Assembly: GCA_019912545.1 (NCBI GenBank)
Contig: JAIOIK010000204.1
Coordinates: 79-64,078, forward strand
Length of the DNA: 64,000 nucleotides
From: Ignavibacteria bacterium
Lineage (GTDB): Bacteria; Bacteroidota; Ignavibacteria; Tepidaquicellales; OLB5
Direction: 5' to 3'
Shown here: positions 1,929-7,327 of the stretch, piece after piece
Numbering within the stretch: position 1 is the first letter of the stretch
How the letters are laid out: each line of letters starts with the position of its first letter
The notes under the pieces: model-generated
Seen by the model: the letters and a program-made list of their open reading frames with translations, nothing else
What the model was told of the DNA's origin: nothing
Databases searched by the model: none
Made by a program: the position numbers and the translations under genes

Positions 1929-2080
1929 CGGAGAAGGTGGGATTCCTCCGAGGGAGTCCCTTCGGGAGAACCCACGTAGCGCTTTTGAGGTTAACACACT
2001 TTCCAGGCGTGCCTCTTCAGCCACTCCTCCAAAGGAGCCCCCTTTGTCCGCAGGACTTCTTTGGAGGGGAGCACCATTCC
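1929..2080 (-). pseudogene. decayed full-length copy of tRNA-Ser(GGA) carrying a 22-nt insertion in the T-loop and a 42-nt insertion in the D-loop
   Basis: It is collinear with the intact tRNA at 2367..2454 over its whole length, and the anticodon arm is identical. The extra blocks are at 1946..1967 and 2027..2068. Substitutions break acceptor pairing (5' GGAATGG against 3' CTTCTCC) and the variable-arm stem (TAACC against CGCTA). Confidence 0.65.
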
Positions 2081-2099
2081 AGTTTGGTTTTTTAGGGAA

Positions 2100-2342
2100 T
2101 TAGATAATGCCTTTTTGCTTTAACCAAATATAACCATCAATGGACTTGAAGAATCTTTCTCTTTGTTCAGCTTCTTTCCTTGTCGAGTACTTTTCGCTGT
2201 AATGTAATTTAAGAGGTTTCCTGTTCTTAGTAGATTTTACTTTGCCTGAATTATGATGAATTAATCTCTTATCAATATTACCGGATGAACCATAGTAATA
2301 TCTTCCGTCTCTAAGGCTTACTAAAATATAAGCATAATACAT
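2100..2342 (-). CDS. small GIY-YIG nuclease family protein (80 aa, stand-alone URI domain, COG2827-like)
   Basis: The N-terminus reads YYAYILVS..DGRYYYGSSGNIDKRLIHHN, which fits the GIY...YxG motifs. It is followed by a conserved R/E region (RKEAEQRERFFK). The start lies 24 nt after the tRNA 3' end. Confidence 0.8.
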   Translation of the reverse strand: MYYAYILVSLRDGRYYYGSSGNIDKRLIHHNSGKVKSTKNRKPLKLHYSEKYSTRKEAEQRERFFKSIDGYIWLKQKGII

Positions 2343-2366
2343 AATTATCTTTTTGTAAGGATTTTG

Positions 2367-2454
2367 CGGAGAAGGTGGGATTCGAACCCACGTAGCGCTT
2401 TTGACGCTAACACACTTTCCAGGCGTGCCTCTTCAACCACTCGAGCACCTCTCC
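2367..2454 (-). tRNA. tRNA-Ser (anticodon GGA)
   Basis: Hand-folded reverse complement: acceptor GGAGAGG/CTTCTCC, anticodon arm CACGC-CTGGAAA-GTGTG, long variable arm TAGCG..CGCTA, T arm GTGGG-TTCGAAT-CCCAC. Confidence 0.9.
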
Positions 2455-2500: not shown

Positions 2501-2582
2501 CGGAGAGCGAGGGACTCGAACCCCCACAGGCTTACACCCGGCGGTTTTCAAGACCGCTGCAATACCATTATGCGAGCTCTCC
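2501..2582 (-). tRNA. tRNA-Ser (anticodon UGA)
   Basis: Hand-folded reverse complement: acceptor GGAGAGC/GCTCTCC, anticodon arm GCGGT-CTTGAAA-ACCGC, a long variable arm, and T arm GGGGG-TTCGAGT-CCCTC. Confidence 0.85.
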
Positions 2583-2596
2583 TGTTGCGAATTGCA

Positions 2597-2625
2597 AATA
2601 TAACTCAACTAATTGCCTTTTTCAA
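2597..2625 (-). promoter_or_regulatory. candidate promoter of the tRNA-Ser/tRNA-Ser/GIY-YIG unit
   Basis: The minus strand reads TTGAAA-N17-TATATT, about 14 nt upstream of the tRNA-Ser(UGA) 5' end. The -10 region also reads TATATTTG, which fits the Bacteroidota-type TAnnTTTG motif. Confidence 0.45.
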
Positions 2626-3634: not shown

Positions 3635-6600
3635 TTATTTTACAAGAATCATTCTTTTGACATTAGTATAATTTCCGGCATTCAGCCTGTAGAAATAAAC
3701 ACCGCTTGAGACATATGATGCATCCCAGTCAACTAAATACACGCCCGGCTGAAGCTGCTGGTCAATAAGCGTAATAACTTCACGGCCCAGAATATCATAC
3801 ACGATCAACCTGGTAATAGCTGTCTTTGGAATATCCACTTTTATTTTTGTAACTGGGTTAAACGGATTTGGATAGTTGTTATACAGCTTAAACTCCTTAG
3901 GTATGATATTTGTAATTTGCGTTAAGCCAATTGGCGCAATCCTGAATGACCAGACTTCGCTCCAAACGCTGTAACCTCCCGGATTGTATGACCTCACCCG
4001 CCAATAATATGCAGAGTCGTTTTGCAAACTTCCGGCCGGTACCATAATGCCTGATGTTGTGATCTCTGTGGAATCATATGCAATAGATGTAAAGCCTGTA
4101 TCTCTGGCTACCTGCACCTGGTATCCTGTTGCAGTTGAAATGCTGTCCCAATCCAAAACCGGAGTTAATGATAGTCCTTGAGTGCCGTCTAAAGGAGAAA
4201 CCAGATTAGGCGCTGCAGGCGGAACAGGAACAGTTGTGAAATTCCACGTTTGGCTGAACTGGCTGTAGCCGCCCACATTTTTTGCGCGTACCTTCCAGTA
4301 ATAAACCGTTAAGGGATTAAGTCCGCTTACGTTTCTCACTGAATCTGTTACCAATGAATCATCCACGACCATTTGTGTAAATACCGAGTCTCTTGCAAGC
4401 ATTACATGATAATGAGTTGCGCTTGGAAGCCTGTACCATATCATTTGCATATTCAGCGGAATATTAATGGCATTATCCTGTGGTGAAAATTGCAGTGGTA
4501 TTGTCGGATTCTGTATAATTGTATTAAAACGGAACCACCGTGAAAAACCGCCCCAGCCGATCTCGTTCTTTGCCTTAACACGCCAGTAATATCTTGTCTG
4601 GTTTACAAGTGAGTTTACGGTCTTAAATGAATCAACTAAGTTGGAATCAATTACAACAGATGCTCCAAGTGTATCAAGATTCAGTTCAAACCAATACTTC
4701 TGAATACTCTCAGCGCCAAAGAAGGTGTTTTTTACAAATGGAGCGCGGTCGGTCTGATCGTTTGCAATAGCCCAGCGGAATGTAATATTCACCGGCTGGT
4801 TAACTGCGCTATCGGGCGGTGAAAGCAGCTCTACCTGGTAAGGCGAGCCAAGTGTCCTGAATTTCCACGCAGGGGAGTAACTGCTTGTGCCGCCAACATT
4901 TTTGGCATTAACACGCCACCAGTAATTTGTGAGCGGCTGCAAACCCGCTACCGACTTGATGCTATCAGTTAATGTTGAATCATTTACAATGATACTTGTG
5001 AACAGAGAATCACTTGCCAATTGCACTCTGTATGTTTGTGCTGTTGGCCTTTTTAACCAAACGAGATTCAAAGAAAGCAATAATCCGGTCTGATTATTGA
5101 GCGGCGAAAACAGAACCGGCGCTGTTGGTGCCGCAATAATAGTTGTGAATTTGAAGGCAGTTGAAAAACCGCTTGTACCTGCAATATTTTTTGCATTAAC
5201 GCGCCACCAATAGCCTGTAAGGTTGCTTAAGGCTGAAATATTTTTTGTTGTATCTGTAAGAGTAGAGTCATTTACAATAATATTGCTGAAACCGGCATCA
5301 GTAGAAACCTGCAGGCGGTATGTAACGGCAAATTGCGGTTTACTCCAAACCAGATTAAGAGATAATGGCTGATTAACAGAATTATCCGGCGGCAAAAGTG
5401 GATTTGGCGAAGCCGGAACAGGAGGTATTGTTGTAAATTGCCAAACAGAAGAATATCCGCTAGTGCCCGCTGCATTTTTGGCGTTAACACGCCAGTAATA
5501 AGTTGTGTTGTTATTTAAGCCGCTCACAGATTTTGTTGTATCGGTTATGGTTGAATCATTCACGATAAGATTGCTAAAACCTGCATCAGTTGCAAGCTGA
5601 ACACGGTATGTAGCAGCAAATTGCGGTTTAGACCAAACCATAGTAAGGGATAACGGCTGATTAGCAGAATTATTTGGCGGAGAAATAGGATTGGGTGAAG
5701 CAGAAACAGGCGGCATGGTTGTAAACTGCCATGCAGAAGAATAGCCGCTTGTTCCCACTGCATTTTTTGCATTTACACGCCAGTAATAAGTTGTGTTACT
5801 ATTTAATCCGCTTACAGATTTTGTAGTATCGGTTACAGTTGAATCATTAACTATGAGATTGCTGAACCCGGCATCTGTTGCAACCTGTACGCGATAGGAT
5901 GTACCTGATGTTTTGCGCCAAATTAAATTTAGAGTGGTTGGTTGGCTAAGAGAATTGTGAAAAGGTGAAATCAACGTTGGAGGGAACGGTACCTGATGAT
6001 ATTTTAGTATGTTAATATCGAAATTGCCACTAACAGCAATTTGACCAGCCAAATAGACGTTACCATAAACATCAACAAAAATGTCTTTTACTTCATCAAA
6101 AGTATTGCCGCCGGGTGTATTATATACTGTGGACCAACTTAGATTACCAATCAGATCATACTTTAAACAATACAAATCTCTTAGGCTTGGATTGCTTTCA
6201 TTTGCCCAGCCTATCACATATGCATTGCCCTGATTGTCGGCAGAAAGGCCGGTTCCACCTTGATTACCTCCATAACTTGGTGCATAAATCTGTGACCATA
6301 TTTGGTTACCGCTAGTATCATATTTTATAGTCAGTGTTTGCGAGCCCGTCATGCCTGCCACAAATAAATCGTTATCACTATTGATCGCGATATTCCAACC
6401 GTGATCACTGCTAGTAGTCGGTCCGGCAAAACGCCTTTCCCAAATTAGGCTTCCAGAATTAGAATATTTCAAAGTTGTACAATCATCCCCTGTTCCACTG
6501 CCATTACTAGAGCCAGTTACATATAGGTTACCTAAATTATCCAATACTAATTCATTTGCAATGTCAAGCGCGTTGCCAGGCCCATTGTATCTTTGTGTCC

Positions 6601-7327
6601 ATAGTTGATTACCGCTGGCGTCATACTTTACAGTAGCATAATCAACACTTGTGCCACTGCCGTCACTCCATCCTGTTACATACACATTGCCTGAATTATC
6701 AACACGTATGGAATATGCATAATCATTACCATTACCTGTTCCGTTATATGTTACAGCCCATAATTGATTTCCGTTTAAATCATATTTAATAGTTATATAA
6801 TCATTGCTTGATATTCCGGCACATAAACCCGTTACATAAACATTGCCTGAATTATCTGTTGCCATTGAATAAGGAATCTCATTTGCATTATTTGCTGCAT
6901 TGTTATACCTCGCAAGCCAAATCTGATTTCCATTGGTATCCAGTTTTAAAGTTGCAATATCACCATTGGTTGCACTCGTACTTGTGCCAGTGATACATAA
7001 GAATCCTGAATTGTCAAGAGTAATATAGTATGGATTATCTGTCGCATTCCCTGGTCCATTATAGCGCTTTTCCCAAATCAAAGCTCCATTTGAATTGAAT
7101 TTTAGGATCACATAATCATTTCCGGTTCCAATTCCAGCACTGCTACCAAGTGAATAGACATTACCAGTTTTATCGGCTATGATGTATTTCCCATATATAA
7201 AATCTTGTTCACCGTCAAAACCATTTCCTGGCCCATTATATCTATATACCCATTGCTGGGCGACCTGTGCATCAAGAATTTTTAACGAAAAGATCAGTAC
7301 TAAAAAAAAGAATATTATTCTCTTCAT
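3635..7327 (-). CDS. large secreted beta-propeller (SBBP-like repeats) / FN3-like repeat protein with a T9SS C-terminal sorting domain
   Basis: It has a signal peptide and about 10 copies of the 'YNGPGNxxD...VTG' motif. These are followed by seven roughly 95-aa repeats ('YRVQLATDAGFSN..YYWRVNAKN'). The C-terminus reads 'YNNYPNPFNPVTKI...GVYFYRL'. Confidence 0.85.
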   Translation of the reverse strand: MKRIIFFFLVLIFSLKILDAQVAQQWVYRYNGPGNGFDGEQDFIYGKYIIADKTGNVYSLGSSAGIGTGNDYVILKFNSNGALIWEKRYNGPGNATDNPYYITLDNSGFLCITGTSTSATNGDIATLKLDTNGNQIWLARYNNAANNANEIPYSMATDNSGNVYVTGLCAGISSNDYITIKYDLNGNQLWAVTYNGTGNGNDYAYSIRVDNSGNVYVTGWSDGSGTSVDYATVKYDASGNQLWTQRYNGPGNALDIANELVLDNLGNLYVTGSSNGSGTGDDCTTLKYSNSGSLIWERRFAGPTTSSDHGWNIAINSDNDLFVAGMTGSQTLTIKYDTSGNQIWSQIYAPSYGGNQGGTGLSADNQGNAYVIGWANESNPSLRDLYCLKYDLIGNLSWSTVYNTPGGNTFDEVKDIFVDVYGNVYLAGQIAVSGNFDINILKYHQVPFPPTLISPFHNSLSQPTTLNLIWRKTSGTSYRVQVATDAGFSNLIVNDSTVTDTTKSVSGLNSNTTYYWRVNAKNAVGTSGYSSAWQFTTMPPVSASPNPISPPNNSANQPLSLTMVWSKPQFAATYRVQLATDAGFSNLIVNDSTITDTTKSVSGLNNNTTYYWRVNAKNAAGTSGYSSVWQFTTIPPVPASPNPLLPPDNSVNQPLSLNLVWSKPQFAVTYRLQVSTDAGFSNIIVNDSTLTDTTKNISALSNLTGYWWRVNAKNIAGTSGFSTAFKFTTIIAAPTAPVLFSPLNNQTGLLLSLNLVWLKRPTAQTYRVQLASDSLFTSIIVNDSTLTDSIKSVAGLQPLTNYWWRVNAKNVGGTSSYSPAWKFRTLGSPYQVELLSPPDSAVNQPVNITFRWAIANDQTDRAPFVKNTFFGAESIQKYWFELNLDTLGASVVIDSNLVDSFKTVNSLVNQTRYYWRVKAKNEIGWGGFSRWFRFNTIIQNPTIPLQFSPQDNAINIPLNMQMIWYRLPSATHYHVMLARDSVFTQMVVDDSLVTDSVRNVSGLNPLTVYYWKVRAKNVGGYSQFSQTWNFTTVPVPPAAPNLVSPLDGTQGLSLTPVLDWDSISTATGYQVQVARDTGFTSIAYDSTEITTSGIMVPAGSLQNDSAYYWRVRSYNPGGYSVWSEVWSFRIAPIGLTQITNIIPKEFKLYNNYPNPFNPVTKIKVDIPKTAITRLIVYDILGREVITLIDQQLQPGVYLVDWDASYVSSGVYFYRLNAGNYTNVKRMILVK
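3945..5985 (-). repeat. intragenic tandem array of seven ~285-bp (FN3-like) coding repeats
   Basis: The protein-level repeats are listed above. The first three copies are nearly identical at protein level. Boundaries are approximate. Confidence 0.7.

Follow-up and report, generated by a model that had tools for sequence, protein, structure and literature searches.

A stand-alone GIY-YIG gene between an intact tRNA gene and its displaced, palindrome-interrupted copy: a candidate tRNA-targeting cassette in Ignavibacteria and related bacteria

The stretch of 64,000 nt analysed here (the window), which belongs to contig JAIOIK010000204.1 of an Ignavibacteria bacterium, holds an open reading frame (ORF) for an 80-aa GIY-YIG protein located between an intact tRNA-Ser(GGA) gene and a displaced, full-length copy of the same gene that is interrupted by two palindromic inserts. 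The reading favoured in this work, with a probability of roughly 0.55, is that the locus represents a selfish tRNA-targeting nuclease cassette which duplicates its target, and that the redundant tRNA copy collects mini-palindromes. This arrangement is apparently undescribed, and it recurs in hundreds of genomes of Bacteroidota, Ignavibacteria and related bacteria.

The cassette is considered an insertion because close relatives carry the same pair of tRNA genes without it. For this comparison, orthologues of the gene located upstream of the tRNA pair in the window were used in related Ignavibacteria; the synteny with this neighbour is lost in L205, and the informative relatives are L204, L206 and L207 (L numbers designate fetched loci or contigs, and P numbers homologous proteins). 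In L204, whose neighbour gene is 80% identical, and in L207, ordinary intergenic DNA comes after the tRNA-Ser(UGA)/tRNA-Ser(GGA) pair, and neither the ORF nor the copy is present. In contrast, the site is filled in L206, where the ORF begins 3 nt past the tRNA, as well as in the window, L001, L006 and L056, all of which present the same tRNA pair. The presence of both empty and filled sites, together with the recurrence described below, supports the first of the three readings offered in the original prediction, a set of observations made on this DNA from its sequence alone, according to which a GIY-YIG cassette targets this tRNA gene and duplicates it on insertion.

A scan of species-representative genomes revealed more than 590 loci of this type, 80 of which were fetched for analysis, while a protein search yielded 94 homologues, most of them also of 80 aa, from Ignavibacteria, Bacteroidota, Balneolaceae and relatives. 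The consistent association of these genes with tRNAs on which the original prediction depended was found: in about 65 of the 80 loci (homologues 58-83% identical), an intact tRNA gene lies on the same strand within approximately 100 nt of the ORF. The adjoining tRNA is of the Ser (GGA, UGA, CGA, GCU), Glu (CUC) or His type, and the ORF is invariably co-oriented with its tRNA in the fetched loci. The hosts are Ignavibacteria, Bacteroidota, Calditrichia and Balneolaceae (FCB group), and they include isolates such as Pedobacter puniceum, Niabella and Melioribacter. Among viral contigs the cassette is essentially absent (one match in 2.9 million), and carriage by phages is thus essentially not seen.

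The flank opposite the intact tRNA nearly always holds a copy of it, whether partial or full. If the ORF is located downstream of the tRNA, as in the window (type A), the displaced copy corresponds to the 3' part of the tRNA, and when it is located upstream (type B), the copy corresponds to the 5' part, often accompanied by promoter flank. Most displaced copies are short fragments; 35 of 63 loci show 100% identity between the aligned segments and the tRNA next to them, and 60 of the 63 copies hold one or more inserts of at least 15 nt. The smallest cassettes consist of the ORF alone (243 bp). In 13 of 32 type A loci the ATG is found 0-3 nt past the 3' end of the tRNA, and the median gap between the stop codon and the displaced copy in loci of this type is 7 nt. 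The junctions exhibit microhomology between the end of the ORF and the tRNA, e.g., TTGA or GGTTGA.

In the window, the position of the GIY-YIG ORF between the intact tRNA-Ser(GGA) and the full-length copy was reproduced in all coordinates by ARAGORN, Rfam, Pfam and alignment (Table 1). The start codon lies 24 nt past the tRNA and the stop codon 19 nt short of the copy. The alignment also revealed the 22-nt insert in the T-loop, the 42-nt insert in the D-arm and the helix-breaking changes that had been noticed before: the copy differs from the intact gene by 5-6 substitutions, and two acceptor pairs and two variable-arm pairs are broken. It is called neither by ARAGORN nor by Rfam, even at E<=10, and ARAGORN recognises it only after both inserts have been deleted, with two acceptor mispairs still remaining. 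Having neither a cloverleaf recognised by these tools nor an intact acceptor stem, the copy is not a functional tRNA gene. The duplication in the window comprises the whole tRNA, and the 5-6 substitutions suggest that this copy is older than most. The closest relative, L001 (83% protein identity), shows the exact architecture of the window.

Table 1. Features of the GIY-YIG locus in the window
Feature	Position	Strand	Basis or remark
Candidate sigma-70-like promoter	2597..2625	-	TTGAAA-17-TATATT, consensus match; just upstream of tRNA-Ser(UGA)
tRNA-Ser(UGA), intact, first of the tRNA pair	2500/2501..2582	-	ARAGORN; Rfam tRNA 54.5 bits
tRNA-Ser(GGA), intact, functional copy abutting the cassette	2366/2367..2454	-	ARAGORN; Rfam tRNA 53.1 bits
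A-rich leader, 23-24 nt, from tRNA 3' end to ATG	2343..2365	-	Too short for an obvious promoter of its own
80-aa stand-alone GIY-YIG gene, UPF0213/YhbQ/Slx1-like	2100..2342	-	Pfam PF01541
Spacer, 19 nt, from stop codon to displaced tRNA copy	2081..2099	-	
Displaced full-length tRNA-Ser(GGA) copy, putative target duplication, non-functional	1929..2080	-	Alignment
D-arm insert, 42 nt, composite, at CTC|GAG after the 5' D-stem strand	2027..2068	-	
Nested, decayed 19-nt double-palindrome unit TCCAAAGAAGTCCTGCGGA	2047..2065	-	Compared with the 19-nt class consensus TCCRAAGGACTCCTTYGGA
T-loop insert, canonical 22-nt double palindrome, at TTC|GAA	1946..1967	-	TCCC-GAA-GGGA + CTCC-CTC-GGAG

The inserts, which were delimited only by the gaps left on aligning the copies with the intact tRNA, constitute a uniform family. 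Among 71 of them, 37 measure exactly 22 nt and 10 exactly 19 nt, and the consensus consists of two tandem 11-nt palindromes, TCCC-GAA-GGGA and then CTCC-TTC-GGAG, with 4-bp stems and 3-nt centres. In 29 distinct 22-mers, this two-hairpin model pairs 99.1% of the cells; changes on both sides are found at six of the eight pairs, with 51 compensatory cells, and not one of 232 cells holds a G-T wobble. Slid controls pair only 26-57%. The first loop reads R-N-A and the second T-N-Y, which are mirror images, and the unit reads alike on both strands and occurs in both orientations. This strict Watson-Crick pairing, along with the strand symmetry, points to elements that behave as dyads at the DNA level and not as RNA structures. 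The alternative of a single long hairpin (the minimum-energy fold) was discarded, as it pairs 73.6% compared to 72.9% in shuffles and has no comparative support.

Neither insert of the window has a second copy within the 64 kb, and, folded singly, they are no better than shuffles (z -0.7 to -1.0); because of this, the evidence for their structure is comparative and not thermodynamic. The original prediction would have been abandoned if the inserts had been unique, unstructured and non-conserved; they are indeed unique in the window and show no folding excess, but they belong to a family which is conserved and covaries elsewhere. The 42-nt insert has two parts: a 23-nt double palindrome on the outside (CCCC-AAA-GGGG, G, CTCC-TTT-GGAG) is split by a nested 19-nt unit, and the same D-arm site in L001 is occupied by a plain, un-nested 22-mer, CCCCATAGGGGCTCCTTCGGAG. 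The perfect stem between CTCCAAAG and CTTTGGAG reported before for this insert is present, although it is a by-product of the nesting of the decayed 19-nt unit inside the 23-nt one. Besides the window, nested units are found in L004, L009, L056 and L077. The third of the earlier readings, a small hairpin element that colonises a redundant tRNA copy, therefore holds as a description, with a conserved family, covariation and a TTN|NAA target in its favour, but the element is a pair of mini-palindromes, apparently acting at the DNA level. A search of 18 palindrome-bearing loci with Rfam at the gathering threshold returned only true tRNAs and two unrelated thiamine pyrophosphate (TPP) riboswitches.

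The positions of these units within the tRNA copies (n=71) are recurrent: 27 are in the T-loop (GGTTC|GAATCC), 22 in the anticodon loop of Ser copies (e.g., TTG|AAA), 17 at D-arm sites and two in the variable-arm loop. At 110 distinct solitary sites, 58% of the flanks hold T at -3 and 79% at -2, and A is found in 64% at +2 and in 63% at +3; the background is about 30%. The target is, as judged from these flanks, the palindrome TTN|NAA, and this motif explains the apparent "loop" positions because it matches the sites occupied in tRNAs, such as the TTC|GAA of the T-loop. The anticodon loops of Ser copies, in which the motif is present, are occupied in 25 of 31 copies and those of Glu copies, in which it is missing, in none of 10; a unit is found in the T-loop of 26 of 42 copies. 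The units are highly concentrated around the cassettes: of 164 hits of their motif, 124 are no more than 300 nt away from the ORF, in 11% of the bases, compared to 19 in shuffles. Comparison of the copies with the intact tRNAs shows a clean insertion with no duplication of the target. In the copy of the window, the D-loop site TTGAA, which is unoccupied, has mutated to CTGAA, a single case that may be due to chance. Two further descriptions of the target were tried and rejected. A one-base target duplication, in which the last base of the insert equals the next base, is apparent in tRNA sites and fails by eye at solitary ones, and a placement strictly in hairpin loops is contradicted by the D-arm sites, which are at stem edges, and by one unit in the spacer of a duplicated promoter (L018).

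Around the cassettes, the inserts are always on the side of the redundant copy, opposite the intact tRNA. Canonical units away from the ORF are rare, both within the 64 kb of the window and across about 380 kb of DNA flanking cassettes, and TTNNAA sequences abound in the AT-rich intergenic DNA next to the cassettes and yet are unoccupied, the inserts being confined to the duplicated segments. A scan of metagenomes with the consensus gave matches in more than 120 contigs, most of them solitary and intergenic and the overall density being low, with some contigs holding many. Only about 12% of the matches are near a GIY-YIG gene of the family; the units can therefore exist and probably move without a cassette in cis, and the idea that they occur only beside GIY-YIG genes was rejected. 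Hairpins in the flanks of solitary units show a weak excess over controls. Tandem arrays, either of ORF plus fragment or of fragments alone, are present in L015, L066, L076 and L029. The metagenomes also contain units without an ORF, made up of a tRNA and an interrupted fragment, beside Arg, Ala, Pro and Ser tRNAs; in L147, L117, L094, L167, L114 and L199, a short spacer separates the intact tRNA from a 3' fragment whose T-loop contains a unit, an arrangement that in some cases is repeated in tandem. These ORF-less units may be footprints of lost cassettes or products of an enzyme acting in trans.

The 80-aa protein matches PF01541 with E=9.6e-14 (51.9 bits versus a cut-off of 22.6). A profile search of the PDB retrieved the UPF0213 proteins BH0048 and EF2693 (1zg2, 1ywl; E about 2e-11), followed by Slx1. 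The AlphaFold2 (AF2) model (pLDDT 94.7) presents the beta-beta-alpha-beta-alpha-alpha core fold, and Foldseek places BH0048, Slx1 (TMq 0.71-0.73, root-mean-square deviation 1.4 A over 74 columns) and At-HIGLE as the best matches, with I-TevI weaker. The residues Y5, Y16, G18, R26 and E62 are invariant in 29 homologues, and Y17, H30 and N31 nearly so; all of them are found in the window protein, and catalytic roles in this predicted nuclease can be assigned to them by analogy. The model thus describes a stand-alone UPF0213/Slx1-like protein that is predicted to be a bare catalytic domain. The wider family is large, with 17,560 clusters at 50% identity matching the profile (E<=1e-3), while NCBIfam and PADLOC gave no matches.

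No promoter or terminator match was found for the ORF itself in the window. Because many loci lack room for a promoter of their own, and none was detected in the window, the ORF is probably read from the tRNA promoter. The constant co-orientation and the ATG found 0-3 nt past the tRNA in 13 of 32 type A loci are indirect signs of co-transcription and of a near-leaderless mRNA. A transcript comprising both tRNAs, the ORF and the copy likely starts at the promoter match upstream of tRNA-Ser(UGA). This match is the only one in the region, as had been stated before, but it is based on the consensus alone, for which the DNA holds three sites versus 2.8 in shuffles.

According to these data, the following mechanism can be postulated for a tRNA-targeting cassette. 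The ORF would be transcribed by read-through from the promoter of the tRNA, in many cases into a message with almost no leader, and the nuclease would break the DNA of tRNA genes, after which repair would copy from the cassette-bearing template. In this homing-like spread the conserved tRNA sequence itself would provide the homology arms, and the microhomology junctions would create the tRNA duplication. The mini-palindromes could be substrates or products of the same nuclease, and they would pile up only in the redundant copy because their insertion into a working tRNA gene would be lethal. Once in the copy, they would abolish its TTN|NAA sites and interrupt the direct repeat through which the ORF would otherwise be lost. 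As a conjecture based on analogy, recognition of branched DNA or of small palindromes in extruded form would fit the structure-specific relatives of this protein. A further proposal, which is possible although doubtful, is that the 80-aa GIY-YIG nuclease and the 22-bp double palindrome form a two-part mobile system of an undescribed kind, in which the Slx1-like nuclease, specific for a structure or for TTN|NAA, would drive its own homing to tRNA genes and also insert or mobilise the 22-bp units.

Several observations weigh against the reading of the locus as a tRNA-targeting cassette. Two loci, L038 and L063, present no duplication. The 80 residues are entirely taken up by the catalytic domain, with no DNA-binding domain, unlike known homing endonucleases, and the neighbour-joining tree, in which all Glu-associated ORFs fall into one clade and types A and B are mixed within clades, is built on 80 residues only and is not robust. 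That the nuclease would cut tRNA genes, TTN|NAA sites or palindromes is something we purely infer, and so is its link to the inserts. The boundaries of the duplications show microhomology with the end of the ORF and do not support the idea that they lie at TTN|NAA sites. The intact neighbouring tRNA keeps all of its TTN|NAA sites, and the host gene would be exposed if the enzyme cut them, while some full-length Glu copies conserve an unbroken repeat of about 65 bp, which weakens the idea that the inserts serve to break the repeat. Finally, for about 88% of the metagenome palindrome matches no GIY-YIG gene of the family lies within 600 nt, and a local duplicate is missing in about 70%.

The main rival, somewhat unlikely in our view, takes as its model repetitive extragenic palindromes (REPs) and their REP-associated tyrosine transposases (RAYTs). 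The 22-bp double palindrome would be a minimal non-autonomous mobile element inserting at TTN|NAA and mobilised in trans by the GIY-YIG protein; the tRNA duplicates would be its safest and nearest landing pads, and the nuclease gene would be either carried along or domesticated. The solitary palindromes dispersed in many contigs are consistent with this explanation, and so are the dense set of L182 (11 units in 14 kb, flanking a divergent GIY-YIG gene), the palindromic target preference, the nested insertions without target duplication, the very high density by the nuclease gene, which resembles that of the REPs flanking RAYT genes, and the fact that the closest folds are the structure-specific nucleases Slx1 and HIGLE, which could plausibly recognise extruded mini-hairpins. 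On the other hand, it lacks a strand-transfer chemistry for GIY-YIG proteins, and to our knowledge no enzyme of this kind catalyses transposition. Furthermore, canonical units are scarce away from the ORF, TTNNAA sites beside the cassettes are unoccupied and the inserts are restricted to duplicated segments, and the presence or absence of the ORF at tRNA genes, with duplication of the target, is left without an explanation.

A function at the RNA level, a modified form of the second of the earlier readings (RNase P/Z punctuation), is less probable still. It has in its favour the constant co-orientation with the tRNA, the tight spacing at both ends of type A ORFs, the missing promoter and terminator matches and a 152-nt copy that folds somewhat better than shuffles (z -2.45); in this scheme, tRNA processing would free a leaderless nuclease mRNA, and the disrupted copy, unseen by RNase P/Z, would act as a stabilising structured end. 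The lack of G-U pairs, the mirror-image loops and the two orientations are nevertheless hallmarks of DNA palindromes, and units are also found alone elsewhere and in positions that look untranscribed or belong to promoter spacers (L018). The pseudo-tRNA is also unlikely to be a processing signal, because most copies are short fragments unable to form a tRNA-like fold and the T-loop inserts would be expected to spoil the elbow read by processing enzymes. A very small probability is assigned to an intron-like scheme, comparable to archaeal tRNAs with several introns, in which the interrupted copy would still work as a tRNA gene, its 22-nt inserts being cut out of the transcript, possibly by the GIY-YIG protein. 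The inserts do occupy defined positions in otherwise perfect tRNA sequences, and the window copy can be called as a tRNA after their deletion; moreover, L071 (2581-3570) contains, upstream of a GIY-YIG ORF, a full-length tRNA-Ser(GGA) whose sole defect is a T-loop unit, with no intact tRNA-Ser(GGA) within 3 kb, such that the working gene may be elsewhere or the interrupted gene somehow used. Against it stand the truncation of most interrupted copies, which lie beside an intact tRNA, the broken acceptor and variable-arm pairs of the window copy, the units in non-tRNA DNA, the missing wobble pairing and 22 nt that present no bulge-helix-bulge or group I features. Ordinary decay, that is, a tandem tRNA duplication that by chance flanks an unrelated small gene and accumulates random indels in the spare copy, would account for the helix-breaking substitutions of the window copy and for inserts which are single-copy in the 64 kb and whose folds are not significant alone. 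It is scarcely credible, being excluded by the recurrence of the ORF, tRNA and interrupted copy in at least 60 independent loci of several phyla, by the fixed length, conserved sequence and strong covariation of the inserts and by their defined target motif; in addition, most of the displaced segments show 100% identity with the tRNA beside them.

Known systems share some of these features. In phage T4, segB is a free-standing GIY-YIG homing endonuclease gene located between tRNA genes, with its target in the tRNA region (PMC2988022). As in the seg genes of T-even phages, the GIY-YIG gene described here occupies an intergenic slot of a tRNA cluster and is optional among relatives at a fixed site (empty in L204 and L207); expression from host-gene transcription and the spread by break repair with flanking homology that is thought to occur in those genes would be shared too, although for repair with co-conversion the clustering of ORFs by tRNA type and the microhomology junctions are indirect hints. 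Seg proteins, in contrast, have about 200 aa or more and hold DNA-binding domains, whereas the bare 80-aa domain of the UPF0213/Slx1 branch has no such domain joined to the nuclease. In addition, the host is a bacterial chromosome instead of a phage, and Seg loci lack the target duplication and the mini-palindromes.

A second parallel is provided by the mobile endonuclease ORFs of fungal mitochondria. Paquin and colleagues reportedly described in 1994 one such ORF in Allomyces (atp6/ORF360) which brings a duplicated end of the host gene. The order intact gene, GIY-YIG ORF and displaced duplicate end of the gene is the same as here, but in our case the target is a bacterial tRNA gene, the duplications can affect the 3' or the 5' end, and the copy is interrupted by a specific family of inserts. 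The double-hairpin elements of mitochondria in this genus are also said, by Paquin and colleagues in 2000, to insert into one another. According to a secondary account, these elements of Allomyces mtDNA and the G+C clusters of yeast mitochondria are short repetitive hairpin elements with no flank duplications (PMC2800124, citing Paquin, Laforest & Lang 2000). The likeness includes two G+C-rich stem-loops in A+T-rich DNA, compensatory changes, nesting and no duplication of the flanks; it is a likeness of form only, given that the host compartment differs. The bacterial units differ in being much shorter, more uniform in size (19-22 bp), directed to TTN|NAA and concentrated by one nuclease gene.

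A possible similarity to REP/RAYT systems resides in short extragenic palindromes that are both dispersed and clustered around the gene of a small nuclease proposed to move them. RAYTs, however, are HUH/Y1 enzymes (of the IS200/IS605 type) which act on single-stranded hairpins, while the sole gene found here is of the GIY-YIG type, the unit consists of two 11-bp palindromes and seems to be present in few copies. Slx1, plant HIGLE and the UPF0213 proteins BH0048 and EF2693 share the same catalytic core and are the best matches in sequence and fold; Slx1, unlike the window protein, needs Slx4 and has a RING/PHD domain, and we know of nothing that links Slx1, HIGLE or bacterial UPF0213 proteins to tRNA genes. 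Integrase islands (attL/attR) resemble the cassette in that they enter at a tRNA gene, which is restored on insertion, and that part of the tRNA sequence is repeated at the distal end. The payload here is only 243 bp, in contrast, and the repeats vary in length, can be 5' parts with promoter and are interrupted by inserts; no tyrosine or serine integrase ORF was found between or beside the repeats. The units also differ from MITEs (miniature inverted-repeat transposable elements), which have 50-500 bp, terminal inverted repeats and a target-site duplication, in being of 19-22 bp with no terminal repeats and no duplication, and from tRNA introns (bacterial group I introns, with a ribozyme core of about 200 nt or more located in the anticodon loop, and archaeal introns, with a bulge-helix-bulge where exon and intron meet) in their 19-22 nt, in the mostly truncated copies, beside an intact gene, that they occupy and in their presence outside tRNAs.

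Searches of Rfam, NCBIfam, PADLOC and the open-access literature returned no account of a GIY-YIG cassette associated with tRNA genes in bacteria or of the palindrome. These results agree with the earlier statement that there is no bacterial precedent, although the feature is widespread and not unique to this genome. UPF0213/YhbQ-type GIY-YIG proteins are very common, and the locus gives them a concrete behaviour, that of tRNA-associated, optional, duplicating cassettes, as well as a candidate DNA partner with a defined target motif. If the link between nuclease and inserts is true, it would constitute a new route for duplication and rearrangement of tRNA genes and a new class of ultra-short insertion elements, and a very small nuclease, with a specificity that is simple and either palindromic or structural, could be obtained from it. 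If the two-part system is true, the 22-bp units would be among the smallest mobile DNA elements known in bacteria.

The locus also explains a recurrent mis-annotation. In many cases gene callers add 20-60 residues to these ORFs by translating across the tRNA upstream or the interrupted copy, and some of the over-extended calls start with a translated tRNA T-arm, some including an insert. Examples are P0008, P0055, P0075 and P0081, with translated stretches such as 'VGSNPT' and 'VGSPEGTPTEESHP'. Many homologues come from contigs of only about 500 bp to 2 kb, suggesting that assemblies may break at these repeats. The contig of L034 (JBQGCI010000336.1), labelled as a metagenome-assembled genome of Acinetobacter pittii, carries a cassette and tRNA near-identical to those of Niabella L028 and L080, and is probably mis-binned.

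Other observations concern the repeats. In L031 (1490-2473), tRNA-Glu-like copies hold a T-loop unit and, in place of the anticodon loop, a different 16-nt hairpin, TCCCGAC-AA-GTCGGGA. In the metagenome contig L182 (PJ/Ga-type; 6150-7150), a divergent GIY-YIG gene of about 95 aa (E=6.6e-7 to the family profile) is flanked not only by the double-palindrome units mentioned above but also by repeated 'gtcattctga...gaagaatctc' units, which suggests that other UPF0213 subfamilies pair with other short repeats. A solitary unit with the same conserved surroundings, GTACAAGTGTG[unit]CGACGCAAC, is present in four contigs that are unrelated (L099, L105, L190 and L178); these surroundings, which have no match in Rfam, may represent a conserved non-coding element not recognised so far. 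Another context that recurs, CTTTTTACATAACAACTTG[unit]AGCGCCTGGTTAGAACG, appears in L170, L177, L198 and L087, with TPP riboswitches elsewhere on two of them. In keeping with an Ignavibacteria/FCB origin of this DNA, another part of the window (3635-7327, minus strand) encodes a secreted protein of 1230 aa which contains many repeat modules of about 90 aa, and the context of its orthologue in L204 shows a Por_Secre_tail (type IX secretion) C-terminus.

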